10,106 bases of DNA, from IMG/VR virus record IMGVR_UViG_2526164690_000014, one strand, 5' to 3'. The notes under the pieces were generated by a model. That model did no database searches. It was not told where the DNA came from and saw only the letters and a list, made by a program, of their open reading frames with translations. Origin of the DNA: a virus (Duplodnaviria; Heunggongvirae; Uroviricota; Caudoviricetes). A program made the translations under genes and the position numbers. Below, piece after piece: positions 3,031-7,560 of the stretch; position 1 is the stretch's first letter, and the number at the start of each line of letters is the position of its first letter.

Positions 3031-3039
3031 AACTTGGCT
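3031..3039. repeat. 9-bp target site duplication (AACTTGGCT), left copy
   Basis: Identical 9-mer AACTTGGCT immediately flanks both IS10 termini (3031-3039 and 4369-4377). Confidence 0.9.
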
Positions 3040-3085
3040 CTGATGAATCCCCTAATGATTTTGGTAAAAATCATTAAGTTAAGGT

Positions 3086-3154
3086 GGATACACATCTTGT
3101 CATATGATCAAATGGTTTCGCGAAAAATCAATAATCAGACAACAAGATGTGCGA
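3086..3154 (-). ncRNA. IS10 RNA-OUT antisense RNA (approximate ends)
   Basis: Placed from established IS10 biology (pOUT transcript antisense to the transposase 5' end). In the sequence, CACATCTTGT (3091-3100) and ACAAGATGTG (3142-3151) form the expected inverted repeat spanning the transposase start codon region. Confidence 0.45.
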
Positions 3155-4355
3155 ACTCGATATTTTACACGACTCTCTTTACCAATTCTGCCCCGAATTA
3201 CACTTAAAACGACTCAACAGCTTAACGTTGGCTTGCCACGCATTACTTGACTGTAAAACTCTCACTCTTACCGAACTTGGCCGTAACCTGCCAACCAAAG
3301 CGAGAACAAAACATAACATCAAACGAATCGACCGATTGTTAGGTAATCGTCACCTCCACAAAGAGCGACTCGCTGTATACCGTTGGCATGCTAGCTTTAT
3401 CTGTTCGGGCAATACGATGCCCATTGTACTTGTTGACTGGTCTGATATTCGTGAGCAAAAACGACTTATGGTATTGCGAGCTTCAGTCGCACTACACGGT
3501 CGTTCTGTTACTCTTTATGAGAAAGCGTTCCCGCTTTCAGAGCAATGTTCAAAGAAAGCTCATGACCAATTTCTAGCCGACCTTGCGAGCATTCTACCGA
3601 GTAACACCACACCGCTCATTGTCAGTGATGCTGGCTTTAAAGTGCCATGGTATAAATCCGTTGAGAAGCTGGGTTGGTACTGGTTAAGTCGAGTAAGAGG
3701 AAAAGTACAATATGCAGACCTAGGAGCGGAAAACTGGAAACCTATCAGCAACTTACATGATATGTCATCTAGTCACTCAAAGACTTTAGGCTATAAGAGG
3801 CTGACTAAAAGCAATCCAATCTCATGCCAAATTCTATTGTATAAATCTCGCTCTAAAGGCCGAAAAAATCAGCGCTCGACACGGACTCATTGTCACCACC
3901 CGTCACCTAAAATCTACTCAGCGTCGGCAAAGGAGCCATGGGTTCTAGCAACTAACTTACCTGTTGAAATTCGAACACCCAAACAACTTGTTAATATCTA
4001 TTCGAAGCGAATGCAGATTGAAGAAACCTTCCGAGACTTGAAAAGTCCTGCCTACGGACTAGGCCTACGCCATAGCCGAACGAGCAGCTCAGAGCGTTTT
4101 GATATCATGCTGCTAATCGCCCTGATGCTTCAACTAACATGTTGGCTTGCGGGCGTTCATGCTCAGAAACAAGGTTGGGACAAGCACTTCCAGGCCAACA
4201 CAGTCAGAAATCGAAACGTACTCTCAACAGTTCGCTTAGGCATGGAAGTTTTGCGGCATTCTGGCTACACAATAACAAGGGAAGACTTACTCGTGGCTGC
4301 AACCCTACTAGCTCAAAATTTATTCACACATGGTTACGCTTTGGGGAAATTATGA
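3147..4355 (+). CDS. tnp: IS10 transposase (402 aa)
   Basis: ORF MCELDILHDSLYQFCPELHLKRLNSLTLACHALLDCKTLTLTELGRNLPTKARTKHNIKRIDRLLGNRHLHKERLAVYRWHASF... matches the Tn10/IS10 transposase as recalled, inside the IS10 inverted repeats. Confidence 0.95.
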   Translation: MCELDILHDSLYQFCPELHLKRLNSLTLACHALLDCKTLTLTELGRNLPTKARTKHNIKRIDRLLGNRHLHKERLAVYRWHASFICSGNTMPIVLVDWSDIREQKRLMVLRASVALHGRSVTLYEKAFPLSEQCSKKAHDQFLADLASILPSNTTPLIVSDAGFKVPWYKSVEKLGWYWLSRVRGKVQYADLGAENWKPISNLHDMSSSHSKTLGYKRLTKSNPISCQILLYKSRSKGRKNQRSTRTHCHHPSPKIYSASAKEPWVLATNLPVEIRTPKQLVNIYSKRMQIEETFRDLKSPAYGLGLRHSRTSSSERFDIMLLIALMLQLTCWLAGVHAQKQGWDKHFQANTVRNRNVLSTVRLGMEVLRHSGYTITREDLLVAATLLAQNLFTHGYALGKL

Positions 4356-4368
4356 GGGGATCTCTCAG

Positions 4369-4377
4369 AACTTGGCT
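4369..4377. repeat. 9-bp target site duplication (AACTTGGCT), right copy
   Basis: Same 9-mer as 3031-3039, directly abutting the IS10 inside end. Confidence 0.9.
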
Positions 4378-5030: not shown

Positions 5031-5072
5031 CTCACCCGGTTAGAGGTGAAAGGCCAGAACTGTTAAAGAGCA
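5031..5072 (-). promoter_or_regulatory. nutR-like site (boxA plus boxB hairpin)
   Basis: Minus-strand boxA-like TGCTCTTTAACA (plus 5061-5072) followed by a hairpin TCACC-tctaaccg-GGTGA (plus 5031-5049). The same boxA core GCTCTTTAACA and a CTAACC loop occur at nutL (6160-6199). Confidence 0.55.
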
Positions 5073-5344: not shown

Positions 5345-5995
5345 ATGAATACACAACTGATGGGTGAGCGTATTCGCGCTCGCAGAAAAGAACTCAAGAT
5401 TAGGCAGGCTGCCCTTGGCAAGATGGTTGGCGTGTCTAATGTTGCTATTTCCCAATGGGAGCGATCTGAAACTGAGCCCAATGGCGAAAACCTATTGGCC
5501 TTAGCCAAGGCTTTGCAGTGCTCCCCTGATTACCTGTTGAAAGGAGAGGATAGTCTTTCAAACATTGCCTATCACAGCAGGCATGATCCAAGAGGTTCGT
5601 ATCCTCTAATTAGTTGGGTAAGCGCAGGATGTTGGATGGAAGCTGTAGAGCCATATCATAGGCGTGCAATAGATAACTGGTACGACACAACGGTAGATTG
5701 TTCTGAAGACTCTTTTTGGCTCGACGTTAAAGGTGATTCAATGACTGCCCCGGCAGGACTGAGTATTCCTGAAGGGATGATTATTCTCGTCGACCCAGAA
5801 GTCGAACCACGTAATGGAAAGCTGGTAGTCGCCAAACTTGAAGGAGAAAACGAGGCGACATTCAAAAAGTTAGTTATTGATGCCGGTAGAAAATTCCTGA
5901 AACCACTCAATCCACAATACCCAATGATTGAAATCAATGGGAACTGTAAAATCATTGGCGTTGTCGTTGATGCCAAGCTAGCAAACCTTCCTTAA
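5345..5995 (+). CDS. c2: Prophage repressor, P22 C2 / phage 21 cI type (216 aa)
   Basis: MNTQLMGERIRARRKELKIRQAALGKMVGVSNVAISQWERSETEPNGENLLALAKALQCSPDYLLKG... with a helix-turn-helix N-domain and LexA-like C-domain (…GDSMTAPAGLSIPEGMIILVD…KLEGENEATFKKL…). Near-identical to P22 C2 as recalled. No Shine-Dalgarno, as expected for a PRM transcript. Confidence 0.9.
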   Translation: MNTQLMGERIRARRKELKIRQAALGKMVGVSNVAISQWERSETEPNGENLLALAKALQCSPDYLLKGEDSLSNIAYHSRHDPRGSYPLISWVSAGCWMEAVEPYHRRAIDNWYDTTVDCSEDSFWLDVKGDSMTAPAGLSIPEGMIILVDPEVEPRNGKLVVAKLEGENEATFKKLVIDAGRKFLKPLNPQYPMIEINGNCKIIGVVVDAKLANLP

Positions 5996-6017
5996 GGGGC
6001 TTTCGCCCCTTTTTTAT
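5995..6017 (+). terminator. Rho-independent terminator after the repressor gene
   Basis: Stem AGGGGC/GCCCCT with loop TTTC followed by TTTTTTATTT, directly after the repressor stop codon. Confidence 0.7.
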
Positions 6018-6029
6018 TTCCCGTTAAAA

Positions 6030-6113
6030 ATCAAAGACAAACTAAATTCGCGCCCATAAAATTAAGTTTTCTTCAAAAATGCACTTGACCAAAAAATTAA
6101 GAGGTCTTAATTT
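6030..6113 (+). promoter_or_regulatory. pL promoter with OL operators
   Basis: -35 TTGACC (6085-6090), 17-bp spacer, -10 TAATTT (6108-6113). Operator-like 7-4-7 site AATTAAG-AGGT-CTTAATT (6095-6112) overlaps the promoter; weaker sites at about 6060-6077 and 6030-6047. Confidence 0.6.
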
Positions 6114-6159
6114 TAAGCCGTCAGCAGGAGGCTGGAAGCCAAACGGAACAGATTGGCAG

Positions 6160-6199
6160 GCTCTTTAACATCGACGAACTCTCAACCTAACCGTTGAGA
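6160..6199 (+). promoter_or_regulatory. nutL-like site (boxA plus boxB hairpin)
   Basis: boxA-like GCTCTTTAACA (6160-6170) followed by a 7-bp stem hairpin TCTCAAC-ctaacc-GTTGAGA (6180-6199), between pL and N. Confidence 0.6.
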
Positions 6200-6309
6200 C
6201 CAGAACTTGAGTGGTTTTGGGGATGGCGCGAATTGCAGCTGCAAGACAGCGATCGAGAAGATAAGCACCTCGACGCGTCATGCGCCAAAGCCACTTAAAG
6301 GAGACCATC

Positions 6310-6615
6310 ATGGTAACCATTGTCTGGAAAGAATCCAAAGGTACGGCAAAAAGCCGCTACAAAGCTCGCAGAGCAGAACTTATTGCCGAGCGACGCAGTA
6401 ATGAAGCACTGGCGCGAAAAATTGCGCTAAAGCTCTCTGGTTGCGTCAGAGCAGACAAAGCAGCATCACTAGGAAGCCTTTGCTGCAAGAAGAAAGAAGA
6501 AGTTGTTCGAAAAAATAGAAGTATTTATTACAAGGATTCAAACCCATTAGGAAACAAAATACATGCAGTCCAAAAAATAAAATTGTACAGTAAACTACCG
6601 TACGGTGCTTATTGA
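6310..6615 (+). CDS. N: Antitermination protein N, phage 21 type (101 aa)
   Basis: AAGGAGA Shine-Dalgarno 5 nt before the ATG at 6310. N-terminal arginine-rich motif MVTIVWKESKGTAKSRYKARRAELIAERR matches the phage 21 N RNA-binding peptide as recalled. First gene downstream of pL/nutL. Confidence 0.8.
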   Translation: MVTIVWKESKGTAKSRYKARRAELIAERRSNEALARKIALKLSGCVRADKAASLGSLCCKKKEEVVRKNRSIYYKDSNPLGNKIHAVQKIKLYSKLPYGAY

Positions 6616-6617
6616 GT

Positions 6618-6956
6618 ATGCTTATGGTGAAAAAGACTATTTATGTTAATCCTGACCGCGGACAAAACAGAAAAGTATCTGATAGAGGTCTTACATCTCG
6701 AGACAGGAGGAGAATAGCGAGATGGGAAAAGAGGATAGCATATGCATTAAAAAACGGTGTAACACCTGGATTTAATGCTATAGATGACGGTCCTGAATAT
6801 AAGATTAATGAAGACCCAATGGACAAAGTTGACAAAGCATTAGCAACACCATTTCCTCGCGATGTCGAAAAAATTGAAGATGAAAAATATGAGGATGTAA
6901 TGCACAGAGTTGTTAATCACGCTCACCAACGAAATCCAAATAAAAAATGGTCATAG
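6618..6956 (+). CDS. Hypothetical protein (112 aa; basic N-terminal half, acidic C-terminal half), function unknown
   Basis: ORF starts 3 nt after the N stop (ATG at 6618 or 6624; weak Shine-Dalgarno, possible translational coupling). AT-rich, with many AGA/AGG/ATA codons. Translation MLMVKKTIYVNPDRGQNRKVSDRGLTSRDRRRIARWEKRIAYALKNG...EDEKYEDVMHRVVNHAHQRNPNKKWS has no homolog I recognise. Followed directly by an intrinsic terminator. Confidence 0.5.
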   Translation: MLMVKKTIYVNPDRGQNRKVSDRGLTSRDRRRIARWEKRIAYALKNGVTPGFNAIDDGPEYKINEDPMDKVDKALATPFPRDVEKIEDEKYEDVMHRVVNHAHQRNPNKKWS

Positions 6957-6977
6957 CCCACTTCGGTGGGTTTTTTA
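6957..6977 (+). terminator. Rho-independent terminator
   Basis: Stem CCCAC/GTGGG with loop TTCG followed by TTTTTTATT, immediately after the stop codon at 6954-6956. Confidence 0.7.
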
Positions 6978-7089
6978 TTGGCTGAACTAACCTAATTTAT
7001 TACAGCAAGCCACGCAGTGAAATGGGTGTGACTTGTGTTGGTCGCCAGAAAATGAAATTAGGCAGCAAACCACTTATTTGAGGTGAGAT

Positions 7090-7560
7090 ATGACAAAATC
7101 ATGGAGCGTACCTTTTCCTGAATCAGAAACTGAACATGATGGAATGCCTGTTTTCTGGAGATTCCAGGCGACAGTTGAAGAAGATGGGATAAAAATATTC
7201 GCACTTCAATATATAGCTTTTCATCAGACAGAGCATTATGCATGGTTGGTTCCTGCGCATTGGATTGTTAATTTTAAACCAGCACCAAATCAGTGGTTAC
7301 AGGAATGGAAACAAAGGAGAAATAGATATGCAATTAAGAAAGTAGCAAAAAATGCAGAAAGATCTTTTGCATTCCCAACGAAGAAACTTGCTATTGAAAG
7401 TTTATTGCGCCGGAAGAAATACCATTTAATGAGAATAAAACAAGATTTGGCTGTTGTATCAACTCTTGTTGATGGGATGAAAAATATTGATACATCAACA
7501 CCAGATATTGAATATAACTTTGGACACAACCAAGAAACAGAAAATTGGGTATTTTATTAG
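7090..7560 (+). CDS. Hypothetical protein (156 aa), function unknown; stand-alone accessory gene
   Basis: Strong Shine-Dalgarno GAGGTGA 3 nt before the ATG. AT-rich with rare AGA/AGG/ATA codons. Translation MTKSWSVPFPESETEHDGMPVFWRFQATVEEDGIKIFALQYIAFHQTEHYAWLVPAHWIVNFKPAPNQWLQEWKQRRNRYAIKK... has no transmembrane segment and no motif I recognise. Bracketed by intrinsic terminators upstream (6957-6977) and downstream (7664-7691). Confidence 0.6.
   Translation: MTKSWSVPFPESETEHDGMPVFWRFQATVEEDGIKIFALQYIAFHQTEHYAWLVPAHWIVNFKPAPNQWLQEWKQRRNRYAIKKVAKNAERSFAFPTKKLAIESLLRRKKYHLMRIKQDLAVVSTLVDGMKNIDTSTPDIEYNFGHNQETENWVFY

Follow-up and report, generated by a model that had tools for sequence, protein, structure and literature searches.

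What is the open reading frame (ORF) of 112 codons that lies directly behind the antitermination gene N in the early region of a lambdoid prophage, and under which conditions is it expected to be expressed? We addressed this question for a stretch of DNA of 10,106 nt, which is called the window in the following. The first-pass annotation had taken the ORF for a charged, AT-rich and possibly foreign immediate-early pL gene, for which it recognised no homolog and considered an anti-restriction, DNA-mimic or host-takeover role. The ORF is on the + strand and does follow N immediately: the stop codon TGA of N occupies 6613-6615, the first ATG of the ORF is at 6618 and the frame extends over 112 codons to the TAG at 6954-6956. 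Judged by its sequence, this ORF is nun, the orthologue of the transcription-arrest and superinfection-exclusion factor of phage HK022, and the gene is already known. Taken as a whole, the locus is very probably explained by a Nun orthologue with an HK022-like operation, in a lambdoid prophage of enterohaemorrhagic E. coli (EHEC; O111/O26 lineage). Within this explanation, the identity of the protein, the conserved residues, the identity of promoter and terminator, the type of the nut sites and the cassette structure are taken from the sequence, and the mechanism of binding and arrest is taken from the HK022 literature; we infer that Nun would operate in the present prophage as it does in HK022.

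The window represents the early region of the prophage. On the + strand, a gene for a P22-C2-like repressor (5345-5995) is followed by its own terminator and by the pL/operator region (about 6085-6113), which precedes nutL; behind pL the order is nutL, N, nun, orf156, cIII, kil, gam and bet. The - strand carries cro, cII, O, P, ren and ninB. The replication gene O is split by an IS10-type element of 1329 bp (annotated as ISVsa5; 3040-4368) with a transposase of 402 aa (3147-4355), flanked by the 9-bp direct repeat AACTTGGCT at 3031-3039 and 4369-4377. Since otherwise identical O26:H11 prophages are free of this element, the present copy of the prophage is probably replication-defective.

The protein encoded by the ORF is identical in 108 of 109 residues to Nun in the cryo-EM structure of the arrested E. 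coli RNA polymerase (PDB 6ALG chain N; E = 2.6e-71 in a PDB sequence search). The sole residue that differs from HK022 Nun (6ALG chain N; 1HJI; X16093 / AF069308) is S11R, located outside the arginine-rich motif (ARM) and the C-terminal segment, so that the ARM and the C-terminal residues that bind RNA polymerase are the same in both proteins. The first-pass annotation had called for profile searches, and these gave a match to PHROG 5632, 'Nun-like transcription termination factor', over 112 of 112 profile positions (E = 4.8e-71). Pfam, PADLOC and NCBIfam gave no match, including the N-protein profiles N_peptide and N36 of Pfam, and the match to PHROG 271 belongs to the neighbouring N ORF; nun was thus identified only through PHROGs and the PDB sequence search. 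At the DNA level, nun is 96.6% identical to HK022, O276 and HK75 and 98-99.7% identical to mEp235, mEpX1, Kapi1 and PDP110P1. In the records of HK022, HK75, mEp235 and mEpX1 the gene is annotated as Nun. The view that the ORF has no recognisable homolog had therefore to be abandoned, since a near-identical protein has two solved structures (6ALG and 1HJI).

Besides the ATG at 6618, the frame contains an ATG at 6624, which would give 110 codons. Counting from the V after ATG 6624 puts S24, Y39, H93, R94, N97, H98, H100, R102, K106, K107 and W108 at their literature positions (PMC5386594), and the literature numbering, with 109 residues and W108 as the penultimate one, is compatible only with this start. 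The HK022 record AF069308 annotates nun as 110 codons, and the diverged Nun homologues all start with MxKKT, which corresponds to the start at 6624. The ribosome-binding site is weak and consists only of a GAG, which precedes ATG 6624 by 7 nt and ATG 6618 by just 1 nt. On these grounds ATG 6624 is favoured as the real start, and the nun coding sequence is placed at 6624..6956 on the + strand (110 codons plus stop). The mature protein would have 109 residues and begin with V after removal of Met.

The defining features of Nun that can be read from a sequence are all present at the locus. The ARM (Nun residues 20-44, RGLTSRDRRRIARWEKRIAYALKNG; 6684..6758, + strand) is identical in 26 of 26 residues to the Nun peptide that was solved by NMR in complex with lambda boxB RNA (PDB 1HJI). 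By this identity and by the role described for HK022 Nun (PMC5386594), the basic N-terminal part of the protein is the putative boxB-RNA-binding helix, and the nucleic-acid binding that had been proposed for this half would be directed to an RNA hairpin. The C-terminal segment (residues 93-109, HRVVNHAHQRNPNKKWS; 6903..6953, + strand) is assigned to the insertion into the RNA polymerase cleft, based on 6ALG and PMC5386594. The cleft residues H93, R94, N97, H98, H100, R102, K106, K107 and W108, which have been mapped in 6ALG and through mutagenesis (PMC5386594), are all present. For arrest, H93, H98, H100, K106, K107 and the penultimate aromatic residue W108 are needed (PMC5386594). The charge pattern that had drawn attention to the ORF was confirmed, with net charges of +10 for residues 1-52, -8 for residues 53-92 and +4 for residues 93-109. 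In every full-length family member the C-terminal segment is kept, down to 44% identity, and it is missing in two truncated members. This conservation points to selection on the gene, as does the number of complete E. coli genomes with an intact nun (219, of which 156 show at least 99% identity).

In HK022, Nun is expressed in the lysogen from a constitutive promoter just upstream, PNun, according to King et al. (2000) as cited in PMC5386594. The corresponding site in the window is a predicted constitutive prophage promoter at 6563..6591 on the + strand (-35 ATGCAG, 6563-6568; -10 TACAGT, 6586-6591; spacer of 17 nt), which lies within the final codons of N. These hexamers are marked as 'nun gene promoter' in the record of phage O276 (MH547045), and the 80 bases at 6535-6614 that include them are 100% identical to HK022 and O276. 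A generic sigma-70 scan of 5950-7150 reported one site only (6034-6062), no more than expected by chance, and did not flag PNun, which is attributable to its weak -35 element; the assignment of PNun thus derives from annotation transfer and sequence identity. The 80 identical bases point to expression of nun from the repressed prophage rather than mainly from pL in the immediate-early phase. A terminator scan of the + strand detected no terminator-like site between N and nun, as the first-pass annotation had stated, and co-transcription of the two genes from pL therefore remains plausible.

The same scan placed an intrinsic terminator directly at the end of nun (6955..6977, + strand), in agreement with the earlier proposal that the ORF ends at its own terminator. 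It consists of the hairpin AGCCCAC-TTCG-GTGGGTT (6955-6972; fold energy -10.3 kcal/mol, z = -2.2) followed by the T-run TTTTTATT. Compared with HK022 the stem is kept through a compensatory A-T/G-C change, being CCCAC/GTGGG in the window and CCCGC/GCGGG in HK022. HK022 also resembles the window in the 120 bp upstream of nun including PNun, in the kind of terminator and in the map position of nun just downstream of cI and pL.

The preceding gene N (6310..6615, + strand; 101 codons) belongs to PHROG 271, 'N-like' (E = 1e-31), has an AGGAG 7 nt upstream of its ATG at 6310 and is annotated as N in the mEp235 record. This gene is chimeric. Its 5' part (6310-6497) is of the phage-21 type, with the ARM GTAKSRYKARRAELIAERR, and shares 97% identity with the N of phiv205-1, which is uninterrupted. 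Its tail from 6498 to the stop codon (ending in KKKEEVVRKNRSIYYKDSNPLGNKIHAVQKIKLYSKLPYGAY) is divergent and AT-rich, with only 83% identity over 48 nt to the N of phiv205-1. The homology to HK022, HK75 and O276 spans exactly 6498 to 6973. Behind the nun terminator, at approximately 6988..7081 on the + strand, follows a relic of the 3' end of a phage-21-type N, which reads ..IYYSKPRSEMGVTCVGRQKMKLGSKPLI* and has no start codon. Over 105 nt, the relic shares 94% identity with the 3' end of the intact N in phiv205-1, and this similarity includes the ribosome-binding site of the next gene. Hence, a cassette has replaced the end of N, and the old end has been displaced downstream as the relic. In lambda DE3 (imm21) of C41(DE3), both halves of N are contiguous and form a 300-bp gene.

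We describe this cassette, an AT-rich unit of about 480 bp at 6498..6977 (+ strand), as a moron that comprises the substitute N tail (6498-6615), PNun, nun and the terminator. It has a predicted promoter and a terminator of its own, its G+C content (36% over 6498-6977) is lower than that of the 5' part of N (48%) and of the window as a whole (47%), and N is uninterrupted in phiv205-1 and lambda DE3. The foreign origin that had been suspected for the AT-rich ORF holds, in the form of such a self-contained cassette. The tail (6498-6617) and nun were each found in 29 phage records with the same accessions. We also considered a simple insertion with target-site duplication, in view of the 10-bp direct repeat ATTTATTACA at 6523-6532 and 6995-7004. 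This repeat is better read as the homologous, duplicated IYY codons of the two N tails, and the divergence from the phage-21-type N begins upstream of it, at about 6498. In mEpX1 (L006, about 2050-2340), a further insertion of about 200 bp with a small ORF similar to gene 36 of Sf6 is located inside the relic N tail, which makes the 3' end of N look like a recurrent point of insertion or recombination.

Neither HK022 nor HK75 has an N gene, and in both nun lies behind putL, whereas in the window it follows, and is nested in the 3' end of, a phage-21-type N that looks functional. The two N-less phages keep only the N-like tail, as the leader of nun; in HK022 (L001 1501-1626) this non-coding leader corresponds to the last 118 bp or so of the tail, and the stop codon TGA of N reads TGG. 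The leader thus resembles a fossil of N, and the comparison suggests that the HK022 nun leader is a remnant of such a gene. We found no literature on such a fossil leader or on the co-residence of N and Nun (mEp235, imm21), with the older literature covered only in part. In nature, nun occurs mostly in N-dependent phages with phage-21-type nut sites, and the N-less HK022, in which Nun has been studied, is the exception.

Can one prophage carry both an antiterminator and an anti-antiterminator? The nut sites, as read from the sequence, offer an answer. The nutL site (6160..6199, + strand) consists of the boxA GCTCTTTAAC at 6160-6169 and a phage-21-type boxB, TCTCAAC-CTAACC-GTTGAGA, at 6180-6199, and the mEp235 record has a 'putative Nut boxA' in the equivalent position. 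The nutR site (5031..5072, - strand) has the boxA TGCTCTTTAACA and the boxB TTCACCTCTAACCGGGTGAG, with the same CTAACC loop as in nutL. No lambda-type boxB (GCCCTGAARAAGGGC) was found in the window, even when two mismatches were allowed. Robert et al. (1987) reportedly observed that Nun spares phage-21-type nut sites. With N and nut sites of the phage-21 type and without a lambda-type boxB, the prophage's own transcripts should be spared by Nun; its boxB hairpins are not expected to be recognised, which would allow the antiterminator and the anti-antiterminator to reside together.

Regarding the natural targets, it is known that Nun excludes lambda and lambda imm434, which share their nut sites (PMC4124055). 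We found a lambda-type nutR in 51 phage records, including lambda, 434, HK542, HK544, HK446, HK633, Sf6, SfI, mEp213 and mEp043, and none of the 40 such records listed carries nun. Phages with a lambda-type nutR are therefore plausible natural targets of Nun. An action of Nun on Stx phages was considered as well and set aside, as none of the 51 records is named as an Stx phage.

Nun has been under study since 1987. Its single known function is the exclusion of superinfecting lambda and lambda imm434 by an HK022 lysogen (PMC5386594, PMC4496710, PMC4124055). Through its ARM, Nun attaches to the boxB hairpin on newly made nut RNA, where it competes with lambda N, and its C-terminus occupies the cleft of the polymerase, which at pause sites can then move neither forward nor backward (PMC5386594). 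In vivo, NusA, NusB, NusE and NusG are required, and Mfd releases the Nun-arrested complex (PMC5386594, PMC4496710, PMC4124055).

For the present prophage we propose a corresponding sequence of events. In the repressed state, PNun, a weak constitutive promoter located within the final codons of N, would drive the transcription of nun. This transcript would stop at the terminator right after nun, so that no other phage gene is switched on; it should start near 6598, downstream of nutL, and is therefore not expected to be modified by N or to pass the terminator. If the lysogen is infected by a phage whose nut sites are of the lambda type, the helix formed by residues 20-44 of Nun would bind the nascent boxB in competition with lambda N. 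Together with NusA/NusB/NusE/NusG, the C-terminal segment (H93 to W108) would wedge into the polymerase cleft and block translocation at pauses. Mfd would then remove the stalled polymerase, so that the early lambda transcripts end prematurely, early transcription is cut off and the invader is excluded. Upon induction of the prophage, polymerases that start at pL and are modified by N at nutL are expected to continue across nun and past its terminator.

Against this has to be weighed a reading along the lines of the first-pass annotation, in which the ORF is expressed solely along with N, as an immediate-early pL gene, and acts in the lytic cycle as an anti-restriction, DNA-mimic or host-takeover factor. 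Transcripts from pL must indeed cross the ORF, since no terminator follows N and the gap between the genes is only 2-8 nt; the middle part of the protein is acidic (net charge -8 over residues 53-92), and over-produced Nun is toxic through non-specific arrest of RNA polymerase (PMC5386594). However, PNun is conserved base for base, and HK022 nun mutants show normal lytic growth and lysogenisation (PMC4496710), which argues against an essential early function. While co-transcription with N stands as a plausible part of this proposal, a primary immediate-early role does not. No family of anti-restriction or defence proteins in Pfam, PADLOC or NCBIfam matched the ORF, and the solved structures show an RNA-bound helix and a C-terminal tail bound in the polymerase cleft, with no DNA mimicry. 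The identity with Nun also refutes a protein of the kind of Ocr or ArdA. The first-pass annotation had stated that its proposal would be refuted if the ORF clearly matched a phage protein already known for an unrelated function, and HK022 Nun, a lambda exclusion factor, is such a match. Overall, we regard the lytic-factor role as very unlikely.

A milder form of the host-takeover idea gives Nun two modes of action. The low level of protein made from PNun would serve in lambda exclusion, and read-through from pL upon induction would raise the amount of Nun and arrest the transcription of the host or of rival prophages, with polymerases modified by the phage-21-type N being spared. The position of nun in the pL operon without an upstream terminator would permit this, and arrest by Nun becomes non-specific at high concentration (PMC5386594). 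EHEC hosts are rich in lambdoid prophages, with matches to the window at up to 44 places per genome. If true, this model would explain why 213 of the 221 nun-bearing complete E. coli genomes (96%) keep nun directly behind N, unlike the arrangement in HK022. On the other hand, decades of work on HK022 have revealed no function of Nun beyond lambda exclusion (PMC4496710, PMC4124055), there is no evidence that N21-modified polymerase resists Nun, the GAG in front of nun is a weak ribosome-binding site and none of the 51 phage records with a lambda-type nutR bears the name of an Stx phage. We therefore consider a second mode improbable. Finally, nun could be a decaying passenger, intact in appearance but unexpressed, in a prophage crippled by the IS10 in O, and in phages of the PA28 type the nun terminator and the stop codon of N are indeed degraded. 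Yet the ORF, PNun and the terminator are intact in the window and recur with 100% identity in a large number of independent EHEC genomes in which the prophage is free of the IS, and exclusion genes function equally well from defective prophages. This possibility can hardly be upheld, and a Nun orthologue with an HK022-like operation is the reading that we prefer.

Nun shares several properties with the N proteins of lambda and phage 21. They are small proteins with an N-terminal arginine-rich helix for boxB and a C-terminal contact to the polymerase, and they depend on Nus factors (PMC5386594). In contrast to these N proteins, Nun brings about arrest and termination instead of antitermination and is expressed from the prophage, and no sequence similarity between Nun and either N could be detected outside the ARM. 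The nun cassette can also be compared with other morons and exclusion genes, such as rexAB and sieB of lambda or gp15 of HK97. As these, it is AT-rich and self-contained, with a terminator and a predicted promoter of its own; it is absent from otherwise collinear relatives and would be expressed by the prophage to the benefit of the lysogen. Unlike other morons, which are placed between genes, the cassette sits inside a gene (N) and brings along a replacement for its 3' end. Whereas other exclusion genes act broadly, Nun is aimed at one class of rivals, the phages with lambda-type nut sites (PMC4496710).

The closest relatives of the locus are mEp235, mEpX1, Kapi1, PDP110P1 and prophages of O26/O111/O103 EHEC strains, which are 98-100% identical to the window over N, nun and the relic. 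The mEp235 record gives the pair the names 'antitermination protein N' and 'transcription termination factor Nun'. The block in these tandem phages shows essentially no difference from that of the window, and divergence begins only beyond the stop codon of the relic.

As stated here, the identification of nun carries little scientific weight of its own, since NMR and cryo-EM structures of the protein already exist; what remains of interest is the structure of the cassette and a gap in annotation. Of 5426 complete E. coli genomes, 213 contain the whole block of N, tail, nun and relic, and both N and Nun are labelled there by RefSeq as 'hypothetical protein' (e.g. NZ_CP077567.1, 4869423-4870069, corresponding to 6310-6956 of the window). 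Likewise, a large protein collection names Nun only as 'transcriptional regulator'. In NCBIfam, neither Nun nor the present N matches any model, and nun goes unnamed in genomes because neither NCBIfam nor Pfam nor PADLOC has a model for it. Consequently, about 4% of complete E. coli genomes, including many from EHEC O26/O103/O111, carry a known exclusion gene under no name of its own.

Several observations concern the surroundings of nun and its more distant versions. Right after the relic lies an ORF of 156 aa (7090-7560), which had no match in Pfam, NCBIfam or PADLOC and matches PHROG 1636 (function unknown; E = 3e-112). It is AT-rich (33-40% G+C) and shared with PA28 and the Stx1a phages. 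PA28 (L005, 1653-2050) and Stx1a-converting phages carry a version of the block that is 91% identical to that of the window. In this version, a 1-nt deletion removes the stop codon of N, so that N extends 28 codons into nun; there are about seven substitutions in Nun, and the hairpin of the nun terminator is degraded. The run-on of N and the degraded terminator indicate that the regulation of nun is not uniform across its carriers.

Diverged Nun homologues with 61-65% identity were found at two further loci (L008, 3001-4440; L012, 594-1603), for example in Citrobacter braakii, where they are located upstream of N. The order at these loci is cI, the nun-like gene, one or more small ORFs and N, and the N of L008 has a lambda-type N36 motif. 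Co-residence of N with a member of the Nun family thus appears to be the rule, with a variable gene order. A metagenome contig (ERR3481970_7033; L010, 2842-3267) encodes a protein of 88 aa (P0022) that combines a lambda-N-type ARM (MDAQARRREKRKEKQEEWKRQN, Pfam N36) with a Nun-type C-terminus (HEDVMHRVVNHAHQRNPKLKW). Its gene begins 3 nt after the stop codon of an N-like ORF of 51 aa that bears an ARM, so that the two form a tandem of N and a Nun-like gene as in the window. P0022 may be a relative of Nun that copies the N motif of a rival phage.
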